Assembly: GCA_016207165.1 (NCBI GenBank)
Contig: JACQQD010000005.1
Coordinates: 98,736-162,735, forward strand
Source of the DNA: Candidatus Micrarchaeota archaeon
Lineage (GTDB): Archaea > Micrarchaeota > Micrarchaeia > Norongarragalinales > Norongarragalinaceae
Reading direction: 5' to 3'
Length of the DNA stretch: 64,000 nt
The translations under genes and the position numbers were made by a program. Shown piece by piece: positions 9,946 to 43,277 of the stretch. How positions within the stretch are numbered: the stretch's first letter is position 1; every line of letters starts with the position of its first letter. The notes under the pieces are model-generated. The model had not been told where the DNA came from and did no database searches. It saw only the letters and a list, made by a program, of their open reading frames with translations.

Positions 9946-11400
9946 ATGGATAGGAAACTCATTATGGGATTACTGGATATTTTTCGCCCCATAGCCCGCG
10001 TTCTGCCGGAAGTCCAAAAACCGGACCGCGCCCCGCCCCTAAAAGACAAATTGCTTTGGACTCTGGCCGGGCTTTTGATCTTCTTTTTATTGGGCCAGAT
10101 TTTCCCGATTGGTTCTGACCCCAGCCAAATCCAGCAGACGTTCGCGCGGCTGGACATTTTGTTGGGTTCGTCCACGGGGTCGCTCATTACCGCCGGCATC
10201 GGCCCCATCGTCTTGGCCTCCATCTTCCTGCAGTTGGCCGTCGGCTCCAAGCTCTTGAACATCGACTTGTCGGTTCCCGAAAACAAGCAGTTCTTTCAAG
10301 GCCTGCAAAAGATTTTGGCCATTGCCCTGAGTTTCTTTGAAGCCGGCATCTTCGCGTTCTCCGGCTACATCCCCATTTCTTCCACGCATTTGTTCGGAAG
10401 CCTTTTCGCCACCCAGTTCATCGTCATGACGCAAATCGCGTTGGGCGCCATCCTCTTGATTTACTTGGACGAAGTCGTGCAAAAATACGGCATCGGCTCC
10501 GGCATTTCGCTTTTCATCGCCGCCGGCGTGTCGAAAGCCGTGTTCGTCGGCGCTTTCAGCTTCATCGCCTTGGGTGCCACCGGCGAGCCGGCGGGCCTGA
10601 TTCCCCGCTTTTTCTGGAACCTCATCAACCCCGCGGGCTCGGTGTCCACCGCGTTTTGGTCCTTGATTCCCGTCCTGTTTACCATCGTCATTTTCTTGAT
10701 CACCGTCTACGCGGAAGGCATGAAAATCGAACTGCCTTTAGCCTACGGCCGGGCCCGGGGTCTCGGAGCGCGTTACCCCATCAAGTTCTTGTACGTCTCC
10801 AACATCCCCGTGATCTTGGCTTCCGCCATTTTGTTGAACATCCAATTGTTGGGAGCGTTCACGGCCGCCCCCATTCCCGACCAGCCTGGACTCAAGGCAG
10901 GAATTTTTGGCACCTACCAAGGCAACCAGCCCGTCGACGGCTTCTCGTACTACATCAACGCCTTACCCAACCCCTTGTTGTTGGGCGGATACGAGCAGTA
11001 CCTCCAATTCATTTTGCAACCCCAGGAAATTCTACACGCCTTGACCTACGGCATTGCCTTGATTGTCTTGTGCGTGATTTTCGGGTGGTTTTGGATCGAG
11101 TCCACCGGAATGGGGCCCTCCGATGTCGCCAAGCAATTGGAGCGCTCCGGACTTCAAATCCCAGGCTTCCGGCAAGACCCCCGCATCACGCAAGGAATCC
11201 TCGAGCGCTACATCCCAATGATCACGATTTTGGGAAGCCTGTTCGTGGGCCTTCTGGCGTGGTTTGCCGACATTACCGGGGCGCTGGGCACCGGCACCGG
11301 AATTCTTCTCACCGTAGGCATCGTCTACCGCTTCTACGAGGATTTGGCCCGGCAACAACTCTTTGAAATGTATCCCGTGCTCAAAAGCATCGTCCAGTGA
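9946..11400 (+). CDS. secY: preprotein translocase subunit SecY (Sec61alpha)
   Basis: 484 aa, 10 predicted TM segments; follows rpl15 as in all archaea; start could be the downstream ATG 9964. Confidence 0.93.
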   Translation: MDRKLIMGLLDIFRPIARVLPEVQKPDRAPPLKDKLLWTLAGLLIFFLLGQIFPIGSDPSQIQQTFARLDILLGSSTGSLITAGIGPIVLASIFLQLAVGSKLLNIDLSVPENKQFFQGLQKILAIALSFFEAGIFAFSGYIPISSTHLFGSLFATQFIVMTQIALGAILLIYLDEVVQKYGIGSGISLFIAAGVSKAVFVGAFSFIALGATGEPAGLIPRFFWNLINPAGSVSTAFWSLIPVLFTIVIFLITVYAEGMKIELPLAYGRARGLGARYPIKFLYVSNIPVILASAILLNIQLLGAFTAAPIPDQPGLKAGIFGTYQGNQPVDGFSYYINALPNPLLLGGYEQYLQFILQPQEILHALTYGIALIVLCVIFGWFWIESTGMGPSDVAKQLERSGLQIPGFRQDPRITQGILERYIPMITILGSLFVGLLAWFADITGALGTGTGILLTVGIVYRFYEDLARQQLFEMYPVLKSIVQ

Positions 11401-14185: not shown

Positions 14186-15214
14186 TTGGTTAAGCGTGAT
14201 GTCCGCCATTTTTTCCACGACTCGATTCTTCTTGGCCTTCATTTAAATCCTCGGAAGAAAATAATTCAACTCCGCGATGATTATATGATTACCCTTCACT
14301 CGGAAGAATCCACCTGGGGAAAGACCATGGATGAGAAGACCGTCGACGAAATCCTCCCCTATTCTTTGGTGGTCATCGACAAGCCCTGCGGCCCCTCCTC
14401 GCATGAAGTCTCCGCCTACGTGAAAAAGATTTTGGGCGTGACCAAGACCGGCCACTCCGGAACGCTTGATCCGGAAGTCTCCGGCGTCCTGCCGGTTTTG
14501 TTGGGCGAGGCGACGAAAGCCGCCGGTTTTTTGCTTCGCGAACGCAAGACGTACGTGGCCGTCATGAAACTCCGAGACCCGCAAACCGACGAACAGCTCG
14601 AAGACGCGTTCCAACGCTTCCGCGGCAAAATCTACCAGAAGCCCCCGAAAAAGTCGGCGGTCAAGCGGGAACTGCGCATCCGCGAGGTTTACTCGCTGAA
14701 ACTGCTTCAAAACGCCGGCCAATTCGTTGTTTTTGAATCCGAAGTCCAGGCTGGCACCTACATCCGAAAACTCTGCTACGATTTAGGCGAATACCTTGGG
14801 TGCGGAGGGTTGATGGCCGAACTCCGCCGCATCAATGCCGCCGGCTTTCCTGAAAACCAAGCCCACCCCCTCCAGCACTTGTCCGACGCCGTGTGGCTGT
14901 GGAAGGAGAAAGGCGACGACTCCGAAATCAAGAAAATCCTGGTGCCCATCGAAAACGCCATCCAACTCAAAAAAGTCGTGGTCTCCGATGGAGCCATCAA
15001 ACCCATTACTACCGGCGCCAACTTGGCCATTCCCGGCATTTTGTCTTTGGACGAAGGTATCCGGAAAGACGAACCCGTCCAAATTTTGTCCGGCAAAGGC
15101 GAACTGCTTTGCTTTGCCAAAGCCCTCAAGGACTCGGAAGAAATCCAATCCAAAAAGAAGGGCATCGCCTTTGACATCGAACGCGTGATTCGAGCGCACA
15201 ACGCGTACGGTTGA
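14186..15214 (+). CDS. cbf5: tRNA/rRNA pseudouridine synthase Cbf5 (TruB catalytic domain + PUA)
   Basis: ...LVVIDKPCGPSSHEVSAYVKKILGVTKTGHSGTLDPEVSGVLPVLL... (catalytic Asp motif GTLDP); N-terminus MVKRDVRH resembles Pyrococcus Cbf5 MARDEVRR; alternative starts 14285 and 14327. Confidence 0.88.
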   Translation: MVKRDVRHFFHDSILLGLHLNPRKKIIQLRDDYMITLHSEESTWGKTMDEKTVDEILPYSLVVIDKPCGPSSHEVSAYVKKILGVTKTGHSGTLDPEVSGVLPVLLGEATKAAGFLLRERKTYVAVMKLRDPQTDEQLEDAFQRFRGKIYQKPPKKSAVKRELRIREVYSLKLLQNAGQFVVFESEVQAGTYIRKLCYDLGEYLGCGGLMAELRRINAAGFPENQAHPLQHLSDAVWLWKEKGDDSEIKKILVPIENAIQLKKVVVSDGAIKPITTGANLAIPGILSLDEGIRKDEPVQILSGKGELLCFAKALKDSEEIQSKKKGIAFDIERVIRAHNAYG

Positions 15215-18990: not shown

Positions 18991-19020
18991 CGATCGATTC
19001 AAAGAATTTGTTCTTTGAAT

Positions 19021-19249
19021 GCCGGGATGGCAGAACGGTAATGCGCAACCCTGGAAACCCGATTCCTGTCAAGGAGGGACCTCAGGAGCATGCGATGGTT
19101 GGAAGGCAACCATCGCTTCGCTGAATAGGTCGTCATCGGGCCGTTAAGGTTGTGGGCGCAAGCCCTTCTGAGTTCGAAACGAAGAAACGCCTCGAAAGGG
19201 GTTGCGATTGACGGAGTCAATTGCTTCGCTGAAAATCTCAGTCCCGGCG
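19021..19249 (+). tRNA. tRNA-Ser(GGA) precursor with two introns: canonical 37/38 intron (19057-19146, 90 nt, contains a 10-bp hairpin) and a T-loop 59/60 intron (19179-19235, 57 nt)
   Basis: hand-folded: acceptor GCCGGGA/TCCCGGC + G73; D-arm GCA-GAACGGTAA-TGC; anticodon stem CAACC/GGTTG with loop CUGGAA|intron|A; variable arm GGGC-GCAA-GCCC (class II); T-arm CTGAG-TTCGAA|intron|T-CTCAG; followed by TTTTTGTTTT. Confidence 0.6.
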
Positions 19250-20552: not shown

Positions 20553-21034
20553 TCATGGCAGACGACGAACAGAGAACGCCAAGCGGCCCGCCGCGCCGAC
20601 GCGGCCCATTCCACCACCGCGACGACCAGCCGAGAAAAGTCTTGCCCAAGGAAGGAAAATGGGGCATTGCGTACCTGTATTCCTCGAAGAACGACACGAT
20701 CATTACTGTCACGGATTTAAGCGGAGCCGAAACCATTGCGAAAGCCTCTGGAGGCATGGTCGTGAAAAGCTCGCGCGAGAAGGGCTCGCCGTACGCCGCC
20801 ATGCAGTCCGCGTTTCTCGTCGCCAACAAGGCCAAGGAGCGGGGCTTGTCCGGCATCCACATCCGTGTGCGCGCCCCCGGCGGCCACGGGTCCAAGACTC
20901 CGGGTTCCGGTGCCCAAGCGGCGATTCGCGCCTTGGCGCGCAGCGGCTTGCGCGTGGGACGGATTGAAGACGTGACTCCCATTCCAACGGATTCGACGAA
21001 GCGTCCGGGCGGAAAACGAGGTCGGCGCGTGTGA
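20549..21034 (+). CDS. rps11: 30S ribosomal protein uS11 (S11)
   Basis: 161 aa, ...[33 protein letters not shown]...[11 protein letters not shown]... Confidence 0.93.
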
Positions 21035-21693
21035 ACATTCAACTCTTGGATGAAAAGGAGCGGAAAGCCTGGTTTTTGGTCTCCGGCGCCTCCACGTCCT
21101 TGCTTAACGCACTGCGGCGCGCGGTTATCTCCGAGTTGCCGGCGTTCGCCATCGAGGAAGTCCAGTTCTACGAAAACACGTCGCCCATGTTCAACGAGTA
21201 CGTGGCCGCCCGCCTGGGCTTGGTGCCGTTGACGTTTGAAGAGTCTTCGTCGACGTCGCAGGTGTCCTTGTCGTTGGACGCCGAGGCCGTCGAGGAACCC
21301 AAGACCGTGTACAGCGGTGACTTGATTTCCCAGGACGAGGCCATCAAGCCCTCGTTTCTGCACGTTCCCATCATGAAACTGGGCAAGGGCCAGCGTCTCC
21401 GATTTGAAGCCATTGCCGTGGTGGGCACCGGAAAAAAGCACGCCAAGTTCCAGTCGGCGTTGGCGAGCTTTTCATCCGTCCAGGAGTACTTGGATGAGGA
21501 AAAAGAGCGCAAGGCCGGTGAAGTCGGTGCTTCCCGGCACGCCTTTGCCGGTAAATTGCCTGGGGACGTCAAGAAAAACGAGTCCGTTTTTTATGTGGAG
21601 ACCTTCAACAACGTGGCCGCCCGGGAACAATTGTACCGGGCCGTGCGGGTGGTGGAGGCCCAATTGGATCGCGTCGTGGAGCTAGTCAAATGA
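21031..21693 (+). CDS. rpoD: DNA-directed RNA polymerase subunit D (Rpo3)
   Basis: 220 aa, ...[43 protein letters not shown]...; canonical S13-S4-S11-rpoD order. Confidence 0.85.
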
Positions 21694-21977
21694 GGGTGCG
21701 CGTGATTCCCAACGCCAAAACGCCCGCGCTTTTGTGGCGCGAAAGCGGATGGGTGTTGCGGGTGCGCGCCAAGCCCATGGACGGGAAAGCCAACGCGGAA
21801 GCGGAAAAACTGCTTTCGACGCTGGCGAAATGCCGCGTGCGCGTGGTCTCCGGCCAAAAAAGCCGGGTCAAAGTCGTTGCCGCGGAAGGAATTACGGAAA
21901 AGAATTTACATGAACGCGTGTGTGCAGGGGTGGCGGAGCTTGGTCAAACGTGCAGGATTGAGGTTCCTGTTCCCTAG
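21690..21977 (+). CDS. DUF167 (YggU/UPF0235) family protein; 3' end overlaps the tRNA-Leu 5' exon by 54 nt
   Basis: 95 aa, ...LRVRAKPMDGKANAEAEKLLSTLAKCRVRVVSGQKSRVKVV... matches DUF167 pattern (P.dGkAN..l...la......v.i..G..sr.K.v.i). Confidence 0.7.
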   Translation: MRVRVIPNAKTPALLWRESGWVLRVRAKPMDGKANAEAEKLLSTLAKCRVRVVSGQKSRVKVVAAEGITEKNLHERVCAGVAELGQTCRIEVPVP

Positions 21978-22059
21978 TGGATGCCTGGGTTCGAATCTCG
22001 AGCGAAGCGGTTGCTGTTTGTCAACGATCGCCGCCTCCGCGAAAATCCCAGCCCCTGCA
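21924..22059 (+). tRNA. tRNA-Leu(GAG) precursor with a ~50-nt non-canonical intron in the T-loop (59/60; 21997-22046)
   Basis: hand-folded: acceptor GCAGGGG/CCCCTGC + A73; D-arm GCG-GAGCTTGGTCAAA-CGT; anticodon arm CAGGA-UUGAGGU-TCCTG (GAG); variable arm; T-arm CTGGG-TTCGAAT|intron|CCCAG. Confidence 0.7.
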
Positions 22060-22076
22060 CTTTTTGGTGACTTGAA

Positions 22077-22427
22077 ATGAAAGGCCGAGAAAGTTTGACT
22101 CGAAAAAGGCTGCTGAACGCCCTGCGCAAAGCCGGCGTCCAGCGTCCAGTCTGGAAGCGCGTGCGCGAAATTTTGTCGGGCGCCAGCCGTCGCGAGCCCA
22201 GCGTCAACTTGTACCGCCTCAGCCGGCTCACGAAAAAAGGCGACGTCGTCGTCGTGCCCGGAAAACTCTTGGGCGTGGGCTCATTAAGCCACCCGCTCAC
22301 CGTCGCCTACGTGGACGCGTCCAAGCCGGCGCTCTTGGGCCTCAAGCAAAGCCAAAGCCAGGCCGTGCCGTTGGAAGCCTTTTTGAAGGACCACGCCAAC
22401 GAGAAACACATCAAGATCGTGATTTGA
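22077..22427 (+). CDS. rpl18e: 50S ribosomal protein eL18 (L18e)
   Basis: 116 aa, ...KKGDVVVVPGKLLGVGSLSHPLTVAY... Confidence 0.85.
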   Translation: MKGRESLTRKRLLNALRKAGVQRPVWKRVREILSGASRREPSVNLYRLSRLTKKGDVVVVPGKLLGVGSLSHPLTVAYVDASKPALLGLKQSQSQAVPLEAFLKDHANEKHIKIVI

Positions 22428-25348: not shown

Positions 25349-25497
25349 CCCGCTGTAGCTCAACCTGGCAGAGCACCTGACTGTAGGACTGCGGACCGTT
25401 TTTGTAGGTACGTTTTCCGGTTACAGCCTGCTCTGTCTTTAGAGACAGATTCCTGAAAGAAATCAGGGTGTTGCCAGTTCAAATCTGGCCAGCGGGA
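25349..25497 (+). tRNA. tRNA-Tyr(GUA) precursor with ~75-nt canonical 37/38 intron (25387-25461)
   Basis: acceptor CCCGCTG/CAGCGGG + A73; D-arm GCTC-AACCTGGCA-GAGC; anticodon stem CCTGA/TCAGG with loop CUGUAG|intron; variable GTGTT; T-arm GCCAG-TTCAAAT-CTGGC. Confidence 0.75.
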
Positions 25498-27331: not shown

Positions 27332-27403
27332 GCCTTGATGGTGTAGCGGTTAGCATTCGGGCTTGTCGAGCCCGCGACCCGGGTTCGATTCCCGGTCAAG
27401 GCG
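27332..27403 (+). tRNA. tRNA-Asp(GUC), no intron
   Basis: GCCTTGA...acceptor; anticodon arm CGGGC-UUGUCGA-GCCCG; T-arm CCGGG-TTCGATT-CCCGG; G73. Confidence 0.85.
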
Positions 27404-28544: not shown

Positions 28545-29651
28545 TCACGCCGTGACGCGCAGGGCTTGATTCAGCGTCTGGTCCACCAACCCGTCGGGAA
28601 GCCGTTCTTCCAGTTTCTCCAAGTGCCGCGCGTCGGTGCGCGTGGCCGGATGCCGGCTGACCAGGCTCTGGCAACAATCCAGATACGGCTGGCGCGACAA
28701 ATCGTATGTACCGATTTTTTCCGCGATGCCGATGATTTCCTTTTTGTCGTACGTCAACAACGGCCGAAGCATGGGTAATTTCACGGCATCCTGTATTGAC
28801 CCTAAGTTTGACAACGTCTGCGACGAGACTTGGGCGAGGTTTTCGCCGGTGGCAATGCCTTCCGCGTTTTCTTGGACCGCAATTTGTTGGGCCACGCGTG
28901 CCATGAACCGCCGGAAAACGGGGAGAGCGAATCGTTCCGGAACATCCAAGGCCGCCAAGGTGAACTCGTTGTACGGCACCAGGTAAACGGTGTTGGCCAG
29001 CGTCCACGGCTTGAGCTGGCGGGCGAGGTTGAGGATTTTGAGCGACTTTTCCTCCACGTTTTCACGGTGCGGGTGGAAGTGCACGTACACGTTCTTGATG
29101 CCGCGCTTGGCCATGAGCCACGCGGCCACCGGCGAGTCAAACCCACCGCTTAAAAGTGTGACCACCTTTCCGGAGACGCCCACCGGCAAACCCCCGAGTC
29201 CCGCGTGCTTTCCGCCGTACGCTACCGCCTTGTCTCTGAGCACGTCGACGTGTACCACGGCTTTGGGGTTTTTCACAGCCAACGCCACGCCCCGTTTTTC
29301 CAGGCGGCGCGTGAGTTGGCGCACGATTTCCGGGGACTGAAATTCAAACGACTTGTCGGAGCGGTTTACTTCCACTTTGACGGGGCCGCCCGCGCTTTCG
29401 GCCAGGCGCGCCACGGCGTCTTCCATGCCGGACAAACTCCGCTTTGCGTCGAGGCACTCGGCAAACCATGACACGCCAAAGACTTTCTCGATTTTCGGTA
29501 ACGCGGACGCGTCGGCATCCAGAAAGAACCGGTGTTCGACGAGTTTGGCTTTGACGTCCGTGGCGTTCTCCAGGTTGCGCTGCAGCTGCCGCTGGAACAC
29601 GGGCCTGTTTCGGCCCTTGGTGAACAGTTCTCCGTAGTGGACGACGATCAT
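28545..29651 (-). CDS. thiI: tRNA 4-thiouridine synthase ThiI (THUMP + PP-loop ATP pyrophosphatase)
   Basis: 368 aa; PP-loop ...VVTLLSGGFDSPVAAWLM...; N-terminal THUMP region. Confidence 0.85.
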   Translation of the reverse strand: MIVVHYGELFTKGRNRPVFQRQLQRNLENATDVKAKLVEHRFFLDADASALPKIEKVFGVSWFAECLDAKRSLSGMEDAVARLAESAGGPVKVEVNRSDKSFEFQSPEIVRQLTRRLEKRGVALAVKNPKAVVHVDVLRDKAVAYGGKHAGLGGLPVGVSGKVVTLLSGGFDSPVAAWLMAKRGIKNVYVHFHPHRENVEEKSLKILNLARQLKPWTLANTVYLVPYNEFTLAALDVPERFALPVFRRFMARVAQQIAVQENAEGIATGENLAQVSSQTLSNLGSIQDAVKLPMLRPLLTYDKKEIIGIAEKIGTYDLSRQPYLDCCQSLVSRHPATRTDARHLEKLEERLPDGLVDQTLNQALRVTA

Positions 29652-38183: not shown

Positions 38184-39398
38184 ATGGCTCAACGCGCAAT
38201 CCGTGAAATCGACGCCAAAAACATTTTGGTCCACGCCGGCGTGGCGAAATGGCACGGCGTCTTGGTGGACGGGCAAACGGACTGGAAGACGCTTTCCAAA
38301 GACCACCCGTGGCTGTTGAAGGAAAAGCTGGTGGTCAAGCCCGACCAATGCTTTGGCCAACGAGGCAAGCACGGCTTGGTTTTGTTGAACGCCGATTTGA
38401 AGGGCGTCGAGCAATTCGTGCGGAAAAACATGAACCGGGTCGTTGAATTAAACGGCGTGAAAGGCCCCTTGACGCACTTCTTGATCGAGCCGTTTGTCCC
38501 GCATCAAGCCGAGTACTACGCCGCCATCCAGACCGAGAAAGACCACGACGTGGTTTTTTTCTCCTTGAAAGGCGGCGTGGACGTGGAGGAAAACTGGGAC
38601 CGCATCCAACCATTCAAAGTCGGAGTCCTTGACGACTTGGATTCGGTGTCCTTTGGCTTGCCCAAGATGCCGGAGCGCGACGCGGTCCACGCGTTTCTCA
38701 AGAAACTCTACCGCGTCTTTGCCGAGAACGACTTTTCGTTTTTGGAGTTGAACCCTTTTTGCATGGTGGACGGAAAGCCGGTGCTGCTGGATGCCGTGGC
38801 GCGGCTGGACGACACGGCGGCCTTCAAAGGCAAGTGGAACGTCGAGTTCCCGGCGCCTTTTGGCCGGACGTTGTCCAAGGAGGAAGCCTACATCAAGTCG
38901 TTGGACGAGAAAACCGGTGCGTCATTGAAGCTGACCGTCTTGAACCCGAAGGGAAAAATCTGGACGCTGGTCGCCGGCGGCGGAGCGTCCGTGGTGTACG
39001 CCGACACCATCGTCGACTTGGGCTTCCAAAAAGAGCTGGCCAACTACGGAGAGTATTCCGGCAATCCCAACGACGAAGAAACCTACCTTTACACCAAAAC
39101 CGTGCTGGAATTGTTGGTCAAAGGAAACGGGCAGATTCTTTTGATTGGCGGCGGCATCGCCAACTTCACCGACGTGGCCAAGACCTTCAAAGGCATCATC
39201 CAGGCGCTGAGCGAATTTGCGCCGGCGCTCAAGAAAAAAGGCGTGAAAATATACGTTCGCCGCGGGGGTCCCAACTACCAGCAAGGCTTGGAACACATGC
39301 GGCAACTGGGCGAGAAAACGGGTTTGTCCATCCAAGTCTTTGGCCCGGAAACGCATATGACGAAGATCGTTCCCATGGCGCTTGAGGAGCTGAAATGA
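38184..39398 (+). CDS. aclB: ATP-citrate lyase small subunit AclB-like (ATP-grasp, succinyl-CoA synthetase beta-like)
   Basis: 404 aa; ...EIDAKNIL...VVKPDQCFGQRGKHGLV...; CoA-ligase fold; immediately upstream of aclA-like gene. Confidence 0.75.
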   Translation: MAQRAIREIDAKNILVHAGVAKWHGVLVDGQTDWKTLSKDHPWLLKEKLVVKPDQCFGQRGKHGLVLLNADLKGVEQFVRKNMNRVVELNGVKGPLTHFLIEPFVPHQAEYYAAIQTEKDHDVVFFSLKGGVDVEENWDRIQPFKVGVLDDLDSVSFGLPKMPERDAVHAFLKKLYRVFAENDFSFLELNPFCMVDGKPVLLDAVARLDDTAAFKGKWNVEFPAPFGRTLSKEEAYIKSLDEKTGASLKLTVLNPKGKIWTLVAGGGASVVYADTIVDLGFQKELANYGEYSGNPNDEETYLYTKTVLELLVKGNGQILLIGGGIANFTDVAKTFKGIIQALSEFAPALKKKGVKIYVRRGGPNYQQGLEHMRQLGEKTGLSIQVFGPETHMTKIVPMALEELK

Positions 39399-41810: not shown

Positions 41811-43277
41811 ATGGTGTACCTCGAACTCACGGAAAGCTACCTGCGCCAGAAAAGCCTGGTCCAGCAGAACTTGGACTCCTACAACCGCTTTCTTGAAGAA
41901 AAAATGCAGGAAATCGTGGAAGCCCAAGGGCAAATCGAGCCCCAAGTGGAAGGCTACCTCATCAAACTCGGCAAGATTCGCGCCGAAAAACCCATGGTCA
42001 CCGAAGCCGACGGTTCCCGTCGCCCCCTGCTTCCCATGGAGGCCCGCATGCGCGACTTGTCCTACACGGCGCCCTTGTTTTTGGAAATGACGCAGGTCGT
42101 CAACGGCGTTGAAAAGCGTCCGGAAGACGTGTTCATCGGCGAATTGCCCGTCATGCTGAAAAGCAAGTTGTGCTACCTGCACGGCAAAAACCACTCGGAA
42201 TTGGAGTTGGCCGGCGAGGACGCCAAGGACTCGGGCGGGTACTTCATCATCAACGGCACCGAAAAAAGTTTGATGACGCTGGAAGACTTGGCGCCCAACC
42301 GCATCATGGTCTCCCGCGAAAAAGACAAGGAAGTCGTGCAAGGCAAGATTTTTTCCACCCGCACGGGTTTCCGCGGACGCTGTACCGTGGACCGCTCCCG
42401 CGAAGGCAAGCTCACCGTGACGTTGCCTTCCTACAACAAGTCCCTGGAACTCATCTTGGTGTTGTACGCCTTGGGCTTGGACTCCGAGGAGAAAGTCGTC
42501 TCCGCTTTCGGAAAAGAAAAGGAAGTCCACAACGATTTGCTTTTGAATTTCGAACTCAACCCCGTCAAAAACAAGAAAGACGCCCTGGAGACCATCGGCA
42601 AACGCGCGGCGCCCGGCCAACCCGTCGACTACCAGCTCAAACGCGCCGAATTGTTGTTGGACCGCTACTTGTTGCCGCACATCGGCGTGACGCAAAAAGA
42701 CCGCCTCAGCAAGGCGTACTTCTTGTCCCGCATGTCGGAACGCGTGATTTTGGTTGCGCACAAGAAACGCGCGGTGGAAGACAAGGACCACTACGCCAAC
42801 AAACGCCTCAAGATCGCCGGCAAACTCATGGAGGAACTCTTCCGCTACGCCTTCGGATTTCTCGTCAAGGACGTCGCCTACCAAATCGAGCGCGCCAACG
42901 TCCGAGGACGTCGGATGAGCATGTTCGCCTTGGTCCGTCCCGACGCGTTAACCGACCGCATCAAGTACGCCATGGCCACCGGCAACTGGGTGGGAGGCCA
43001 CACCGGCGTGTCCCAACCCATGGACCGCTACAACTTCATTTCCGCCGCTTCATTCTTAAAGCGCGTCACGTCGCCTTTGGCCAAAAAACACCCGCACTAC
43101 AAGGCCCGCGACCTGAACGGCACGCACTGGGGGCGCCTGGATCCCAACGAGACGCCGGAAGGCCCCAACTGCGGCCTGGTCAAAAACCTCGCGCTGTACT
43201 GCGAAGTCACCACCGGAATTAAAGAACAAGCCGTTGAAGCCACGCTGAAGAAAATGGGGTTGACCATGCGCGTATGA
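41811..43277 (+). CDS. rpoB2: DNA-directed RNA polymerase subunit B'' (Rpo2 N-terminal half; split rpoB)
   Basis: 488 aa; ends 43277 with ATGA overlap into B'. Confidence 0.93.
   Translation: MVYLELTESYLRQKSLVQQNLDSYNRFLEEKMQEIVEAQGQIEPQVEGYLIKLGKIRAEKPMVTEADGSRRPLLPMEARMRDLSYTAPLFLEMTQVVNGVEKRPEDVFIGELPVMLKSKLCYLHGKNHSELELAGEDAKDSGGYFIINGTEKSLMTLEDLAPNRIMVSREKDKEVVQGKIFSTRTGFRGRCTVDRSREGKLTVTLPSYNKSLELILVLYALGLDSEEKVVSAFGKEKEVHNDLLLNFELNPVKNKKDALETIGKRAAPGQPVDYQLKRAELLLDRYLLPHIGVTQKDRLSKAYFLSRMSERVILVAHKKRAVEDKDHYANKRLKIAGKLMEELFRYAFGFLVKDVAYQIERANVRGRRMSMFALVRPDALTDRIKYAMATGNWVGGHTGVSQPMDRYNFISAASFLKRVTSPLAKKHPHYKARDLNGTHWGRLDPNETPEGPNCGLVKNLALYCEVTTGIKEQAVEATLKKMGLTMRV

Follow-up and report, generated by a model that had tools for sequence, protein, structure and literature searches.

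The tRNA-Leu(GAG) gene that follows rpoD in this Micrarchaeota genome is very probably a conserved archaeal gene of the post-rpoD position, carrying a 50-nt intron that is spliced out at position 59/60 of the T-loop, with the tail that it lends to the upstream DUF167 protein being incidental to genome compaction. The gene lies at 21924-22059 on the + strand of the window (the whole 64,000-nt stretch of DNA analyzed here) and consists of exons of 72 and 14 nt around a single 50-nt insert. The locus comprises the following features:

21031-21693, + strand: rpoD (RNA polymerase subunit D), the upstream neighbour; Pfam PF01000 and PF01193
21690-21977, + strand: DUF167/YggU-family ORF, 95 aa; Pfam PF02594; its ATG overlaps the rpoD stop codon (ATGA)
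21924-21995, + strand: 5′ exon of tRNA-Leu(GAG), 72 nt; acceptor 5′ strand, D-arm, anticodon arm and long variable arm, as given by ARAGORN on the spliced sequence
21960-21962, + strand: anticodon GAG, within the 5′ exon
21975-21977, + strand: variable-arm TAG, within the 5′ exon
21985-21989, + strand: 5′ strand of the T-stem, within the 5′ exon
21990-21995, + strand: T-loop nucleotides 54-59, the 3′ end of the 5′ exon
21996-22045, + strand: predicted intron at T-loop position 59/60, 50 nt, with an internal hairpin around 22002-22035
22046-22059, + strand: 3′ exon, 14 nt; U60, T-stem CCCAG (22047-22051) and acceptor CCCCTGC (22052-22058)
22061-22065, + strand: T5 run just past the tRNA, followed by GGTGA and the start of an L18e-like ORF at 22077

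Read from end to end, the gene runs GCAGGGG-UG-GCG...GAG...variable arm-CUGGG-UUCGAA, then the 50-nt insert, then U-CCCAG-CCCCUGC-A, with A22059 as the discriminator and no genome-encoded CCA. The splice joint is predicted at 59/60, joining ...GGGUUCGAA to UCCCAGCCCCUGCA. An earlier, sequence-only reading of this DNA had described the 5′ half as a class II tRNA without interruption as far as TTCGAAT, with CCCAG-CCCCTGC-A about 50 nt further on; we read the same elements at 21924-21996 and, 50 nt past the T-loop, at 22047-22059. The T5 run may provide an oligo-T context of the archaeal type for termination or processing. The rpoD product has a 100% identical counterpart at NCBI, from a Candidatus Micrarchaeota MAG.

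In silico removal of the insert restores a canonical tRNA-Leu

On the raw window, ARAGORN called tRNA-Asp only and did not call tRNA-Leu(GAG); Rfam at gathering thresholds likewise reported tRNA-Asp and the intron-containing tRNA at 25349-25497, but not the tRNA-Leu locus. A permissive local Rfam scan yielded an 18-bit partial tRNA match whose first base is exactly 21924. Once positions 21996-22045 were removed, ARAGORN called an 86-nt tRNA-Leu(gag) with a normal class II cloverleaf: a 7-bp acceptor stem, a D-arm, a 5-bp anticodon stem with a 7-nt loop and GAG at 37-39 (ARAGORN), and a variable arm (UUCCCUAGUGGAUG) drawn as paired, as expected of class II. The spliced T-arm consists of CTGGG/CCCAG and the 7-nt loop TTCGAAT, in agreement with the TTCRAAT of 12 uninterrupted Leu(GAG) orthologues (nine from Micrarchaeota, with Methanoperedens and Thermococci, all in the slot after rpoD). 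The spliced sequence aligns to these orthologues without indels, which upholds the identity first proposed for the gene. Precise in silico excision of the 50-nt intron therefore restores a canonical tRNA.

As a specificity control, we ran a crude detector of inserts flanked by pairing acceptor and T-stem strands and submitted the spliced products to ARAGORN. The real window gave 38 candidates, of which only five were called as tRNAs, all of them genuine (Ser, Leu, Pro, Tyr and Asp), while ARAGORN accepted 2 of 242 candidates from 20 shuffled windows. The free-energy fold of the whole precursor was not significant (z = -1.35) and paired the D-arm with the intron; this pairing was dropped, as it is not conserved in L003, the nearest relative among the loci that we retrieved (numbered Lnnn; 80 syntenic loci were surveyed, with the rpoD alignment as anchor). 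Default tRNA finders overlook genes such as this interrupted tRNA-Leu, and gene callers then stretch neighbouring ORFs through them.

The DUF167 reading frame ends within the tRNA gene

The DUF167 ORF matches PF02594 over residues 2-64 (E = 7.5e-13; 48.9 bits vs. a gathering cut-off of 30.9). Its conserved core extends to about residue 78. Codon 79 begins at nucleotide 1 of the tRNA (21924), and the tail formed by residues 79-95 (AGVAELGQTCRIEVPVP) is encoded, together with the TAG, by the tRNA 5′ exon; the translation across the core-to-tail joint at 21923/21924 reads ...NLHERVCAGVAELGQTCR. The overlap measures 54 nt, that is 17 sense codons (51 nt) and the TAG at 21975-21977 in the variable arm, bearing out the same-strand protein/tRNA overlap that had been claimed. 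DUF167 lacks a stop codon of its own, and ribosomes would therefore read these 51 nt of the 5′ exon before reaching the variable-arm TAG.

A word-indexed homology search with DUF167 yielded a single relative besides the protein itself; the wider set of homologues was recovered via rpoD synteny, and the ORF was found directly 3′ of rpoD in at least 35 syntenic loci. The closest homologue (L003/L004) is 81% identical, is also 95 aa long and has the same TAG arrangement. Over 78 codons, the window and L003 differ at 19 synonymous and 16 non-synonymous positions, a comparison of sequences that suggests purifying selection. The two tails differ by two substitutions, at tRNA nucleotides 32 and 38.

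We counted overlaps in the 35 loci that have both DUF167 and the tRNA, window and L003 included. In 12 of them, DUF167 terminates only within the tRNA gene, the overlap being 10-129 nt and each of the three frames being represented; the other 23 have the stop ahead of the tRNA, separated from it by 1-45 nt. The C-terminal motif KSRxKEIxFEGLSDEEAxxxL (KSRVKVVAAEGITEKNLHERVC in the window) ends before the tRNA in all 35. The overlapping frames end at the variable-arm TAG, at an anticodon-loop UGA (U33-G34-A35), at U8-A9-G10 or within a D-loop intron, and their tails of 2-42 aa are dictated by the tRNA or intron sequence (AGVAELGQ..., GGGRAWSN..., RGWQS). Across the 35 loci we found no conservation of the tail for the protein's sake, independent of the tRNA. 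Since the tails follow the tRNA sequence, their content looks incidental. The DUF167/tRNA overlap is real and recurrent across Micrarchaeota; its simplest explanation is that it is a by-product of compaction.

The sequence-only reading had proposed that homologues terminating earlier would reduce the overlap to an ORF-calling artefact. Homologues do stop earlier in 23 of the 35 loci, but 11 loci besides the window overlap as it does, and since the window has no in-frame stop between 21690 and 21975, its own overlap is not such an artefact. We propose that a DUF167 gene became wedged between rpoD and the tRNA within the Micrarchaeota lineage and was packed against the tRNA. The order rpoD-DUF167-tRNA-Leu(GAG) is a widespread Micrarchaeota synteny (35 loci of L003-L058); DUF167 is missing from the loci of Methanoperedens and Thermococci, where rpoD is followed by the tRNA.

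It should be noted that nearly all Leu(GAG) orthologues contain both the UGA (U33-G34-A35) and a variable-arm UAG (21960-21977 in the window), so that the tRNA offers a stop in two of the three frames to incoming ORFs. The overlap in 12 of 35 loci illustrates DPANN genome compaction, with a tRNA supplying the stop codon of the gene upstream, and it raises the question of competition between translation and tRNA processing. In the literature we found no description of an archaeal same-strand protein/tRNA overlap, and nothing informative on the function of DUF167.

Proposed expression of rpoD, DUF167 and the tRNA from one transcript

No positionally conserved TATA-like promoter element was seen upstream of the tRNA in 66 loci, in many of which the upstream ORF finishes 12 nt or less from the tRNA. 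In the window, TTTACATG at -19 was considered as a tRNA promoter and rejected as being too near the tRNA. With no separate promoter signal apparent, the tRNA is probably excised from the rpoD-DUF167 transcript. If so, RNase P cleavage at 21923/21924 would deprive the DUF167 message of its last 17 codons and its stop, and DUF167 and tRNA-Leu would therefore compete for one RNA molecule: from any one transcript, the cell would obtain the whole DUF167 frame or the processed tRNA, never both.

The 20 nt that precede the tRNA (21904-21923, ATTTACATGAACGCGTGTGT) are 100% identical to L003, compared to 80% for DUF167 overall. This may reflect a constraint on the 5′ leader or RNase P context, or chance (roughly 0.01); it could also point to an extra function of the junction region. 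The 9-mer AAAGAATTT occurs at both 19001-19009 and 21899-21907, 12-25 nt upstream of tRNA-Ser and tRNA-Leu, respectively.

These observations bear on whether the overlap is functional, either because DUF167 translation and RNase P/EndA maturation compete and so couple the two outputs, or because the tail aids DUF167. DUF167 comes within 45 nt of the tRNA or runs into it in all 35 loci (the 12 overlapping ones included), the arrangement is kept in the 81%-identical relative, the 20 nt ahead of the tRNA are fully conserved vs. 80% for the gene as a whole, and no separate promoter is evident. We nevertheless consider a functional overlap unlikely: the tails, at 2-42 aa, are wholly different between frames and set by tRNA or intron sequence, an ordinary stop precedes the tRNA in 23 of the 35 loci, and both tail substitutions relative to L003 are tRNA loop changes that are non-synonymous in DUF167. 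The stronger proposal that the recurrent overlap is a selected coupling device, with maturation and DUF167 translation mutually exclusive on each transcript, seems to us a shade less likely still. Were it true, DUF167 (possibly a tRNA- or ribosome-associated protein) would be tuned against the supply of tRNA-Leu(GAG), with the conserved 20-nt leader belonging to the switch.

The intron fits a relaxed splice motif at position 59/60

To return to the preferred reading, a spliced tRNA with an incidental DUF167 tail, we modelled a BHB motif at 59/60 in which the outer helix is the T-stem, one strand of the central helix is formed by nucleotides 54-57, and the bulges are A58 A59/N on the 5′ side and N N/N60 on the 3′ side (the slash marks the cut). 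The T-stem (21985-21989/22047-22051) provides the outer helix and adjoins a 3-nt bulge containing the 3′ splice site, A22044 A22045/U22046, followed by CCCAG. All four central-helix pairs can form between UUCG (21990-21993, U54-G57) and CGAA at the 3′ end of the intron (22040-22043). The T-stem, the 3-nt bulge and the 4-bp central helix all fit this register, in line with the T-loop intron at 59/60 that had been proposed. The same four pairs and AA/U bulge are found in the window's tRNA-Leu and tRNA-Ser and in L003, L005, L006, L026, L028 and L050. Junctions from 57/58 to 60/61 all yield an identical mature tRNA-Leu; it is the BHB register that singles out 59/60.

The fold constrained to the BHB has a free energy of -20.8 kcal/mol, within 0.5 kcal/mol of the unconstrained minimum (-21.3 kcal/mol). 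At the 5′ site, the strict hBHBh′ arrangement fails: the inner helix has only 1 bp in register, and the constrained fold places A58 A59/U in a roughly 6x2 internal loop. A competing hairpin (GUUCGA/UCGAGC) is predicted at this site and is favoured by a two-sequence RNAalifold, a comparison that does not discriminate between the structures. Because the 5′ site lacks a proper closing inner helix, we class the motif as relaxed hBH/BHL; in the modelled fold, the 3′ half of the BHB is canonical and the 5′ half relaxed. The BHB fold by which the sequence-only reading proposed to judge the intron is thus borne out in its strict form at the 3′ site, but not in the closure of the 5′ bulge.

It had also been pointed out that the T-loop introns of tRNA-Ser and tRNA-Leu both end in GAAAAT, as a hint of a shared splice-site context. 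The Leu insert ends ...CGCGAAAAT and the 57-nt Ser insert ...GCTGAAAAT, the latter with UGAAAAU at its 3′ end (gene 19021-19249). The shared ending is there, but it decodes simply: (C/U)GAA is the strand opposite U54-U55-C56-G57, the next two letters (AA) make the 3′ bulge, and the final U becomes nucleotide 60. The BHB at 59/60 itself requires these letters, and they are not an extra splice signal.

We propose that in the precursor the T-stem would act as outer helix and the intron's CGAA would pair with U54-U55-C56-G57 to form the 4-bp central helix; AA/U would then make up the 3′ bulge, while A58 A59/U at the 5′ site would sit in a poorly closed loop, giving the relaxed hBH/BHL motif. Both sites would be cut by a broad-specificity endonuclease, presumably of the ε2 type known from Micrarchaeota, and a ligase would join the 72- and 14-nt exons into the 86-nt tRNA. 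There was no tRNA_int_endo match among 20 larger ORFs of the window, and the type of enzyme is therefore taken from relatives.

Conservation of the tRNA-Leu(GAG) locus

An identical 391-nt locus, overlap included, is present in two other, independent assemblies. Compared to L003, the 5′ exon is 97% and the 3′ exon 100% identical, vs. 77% for the intron, 80% for the DUF167 core, 84% for rpoD and 78% for the L18e-like gene. Exons that are conserved above both the intron and the flanking genes are the pattern expected of a functional spliced tRNA. L003 and L004 keep the tRNA, a 52-nt T-loop intron (vs. 50 nt in the window) and the variable-arm TAG stop alongside their DUF167 homologue, and the 3′ exon sequence is unchanged in many relatives.

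Throughout the 80-locus survey, tRNA-Leu(GAG) was found downstream of rpoD. It is uninterrupted in Methanoperedens, in one Thermococci MAG and in many Micrarchaeota. A T-loop insert alone occurs in L005 (23 nt) and L006 (25 nt), both with a perfect hBHBh′ motif, and in L026 (34 nt). Other Micrarchaeota have inserts in the D-loop and T-loop, in the D-loop and variable arm, in the D-loop alone, or of 13-16 nt in the anticodon region. Loci with D-loop, variable-arm or anticodon-region inserts are L015, L025, L028, L031, L036-L038, L041, L043-L047, L050 and L056, to which the same listing adds L066, L067, L071, L077 and L082. The D-loop inserts measure about 50-140 nt and are placed after GGUCAA, and the variable-arm inserts are those of L015 and L025; there are up to two introns per gene, and intron sequences cannot be aligned between groups. 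The T-loop inserts of L027, L031, L038, L043, L044, L047 and L056 (36-248 nt) do not fit 59/60, with one of four central-helix pairs in register. The Leu(GAG) slot after rpoD is thus a hotspot for inserts across the phylum, in the T-loop, D-loop, variable arm and anticodon region, and should be useful for studies of intron gain and loss and of ε2 endonuclease specificity.

These data also speak to whether the tRNA-Leu is a decaying pseudogene, disrupted by an insertion that is never removed. Although standard tRNA finders make no call and the 5′ splice site is without the canonical bulge-closing helix, we regard this as very improbable. Conservation is 97-100% in the exons but not in the diverging insert, the BHB has a 3′ half that is both perfect and conserved, the gene occupies the conserved archaeal Leu(GAG) slot, and inserts are found at the same place in many Micrarchaeota, textbook hBHBh′ cases included; moreover, the ARMAN-2 enzyme cleaves relaxed 59/60 introns (PMC3239211). 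Least probable of all, to the point that we set it aside, is that the 95-aa ORF is an annotation or assembly artefact, with DUF167 stopping before the tRNA or being no gene at all: the Pfam domain does end at about residue 64-66 and most homologues end ahead of the tRNA, but there is no in-frame stop from 21690 to 21975, the sequence is identical in two independent assemblies, the Pfam score exceeds the gathering cut-off, rpoD-DUF167 synteny holds in at least 35 loci, and synonymous differences from L003 outnumber non-synonymous ones (19 vs. 16 in 78 codons).

Comparison with known systems

The closest parallels to a functional, spliced tRNA-Leu come from ARMAN-2 (Candidatus Micrarchaeum acidiphilum), in which 56% of tRNA genes are disrupted; pre-tRNA-Cys(GCA) there has a 13-nt intron at 59/60, and pre-tRNA-Pro(GGG) is interrupted twice, at 53/54 and 59/60 (Fujishima et al. 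2011, PMC3239211). The ARMAN-2 ε2 endonuclease, an enzyme documented for ARMAN-1/2 only, cleaves strict and relaxed motifs in vitro (PMC3239211), and later structural studies bear out that ε2 tolerates BHL substrates (PMC12397907). Since relaxed 59/60 introns and their cleavage by ε2 are already known in ARMAN-2, the Leu intron belongs to a described class. It shares with pre-tRNA-Cys(GCA) the phylum, the 59/60 position and a relaxed hBH/BHL motif with a good 3′ site and a loose 5′ site; it differs in being located in a class II tRNA-Leu(GAG), in its length (50 vs. 13 nt) and internal hairpin, and in that cleavage is here a prediction. Micrarchaeota also offer a 59/60 T-loop case with a strict hBHBh′ motif. 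The position is the same, and multi-intron tRNAs are represented here by the window's tRNA-Ser and by the tRNA-Leu of relatives, but the window's tRNA-Leu is interrupted only once, and its 5′ site is relaxed. For the catalogue of interrupted Micrarchaeota tRNAs, the locus is a new entry: a class II tRNA whose 59/60 intron is long (50 nt) and has a relaxed motif.

Two further systems resemble the locus in part. Crenarchaeota, and Thermoproteales in particular, reportedly have non-canonical tRNA introns processed by (αβ)2 endonucleases; there too, BHB-type introns lie outside 37/38, are often relaxed (HBh′/hBH) and interrupt many tRNA genes, in another lineage and with another enzyme architecture. 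The overlap itself recalls the 'tRNA punctuation' said to operate in animal mitochondria, where protein genes abut or overlap tRNAs. In both cases compaction is extreme and a same-strand frame reaches or enters a tRNA, which is later cut out of a polycistronic RNA (as we suppose here). Unlike mitochondrial frames with incomplete stops that are completed by polyadenylation, the DUF167 ORF has a full TAG inside the tRNA, and we know of no stop-codon completion mechanism of the mitochondrial type that would apply to it, nor is one implied.

Other genes of the window

Three other tRNA genes accompany tRNA-Leu and the probable tRNA-Ser described below:

23725-23600, - strand: tRNA-Pro(UGG), with a 53-nt anticodon-loop intron
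25349-25497, + strand: tRNA-Tyr(GUA), with a 75-78-nt intron
27332-27403, + strand: tRNA-Asp(GUC), uninterrupted

Introns thus interrupt four of the five tRNA genes in this 8.4-kb stretch, consistent with the high rate of disruption in ARMAN-2. A probable tRNA-Ser(GGA) at 19021-19249 (+ strand) has two introns, of about 90 nt (anticodon loop) and 57 nt (T-loop, 59/60), and is preceded by a TTTAAATA box some 35 nt away. ARAGORN found this tRNA only once the T-loop insert was removed, and then mis-assigned its anticodon to Asn. Brute-force splicing gave Ser(GGA) among other calls, the boundaries of the second intron not being fixed by ARAGORN alone.

The window also encodes the following proteins:

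9946-11400: SecY
14186-15214, + strand: Cbf5/TruB-PUA pseudouridine synthase
28545-29651, - strand: ThiI
38184-39398, + strand: ATP-citrate-lyase-like protein (Citrate_bind and ATP-grasp)
41811-43277: RpoB′

The ATP-citrate-lyase-like protein is unexpected in a small DPANN genome.
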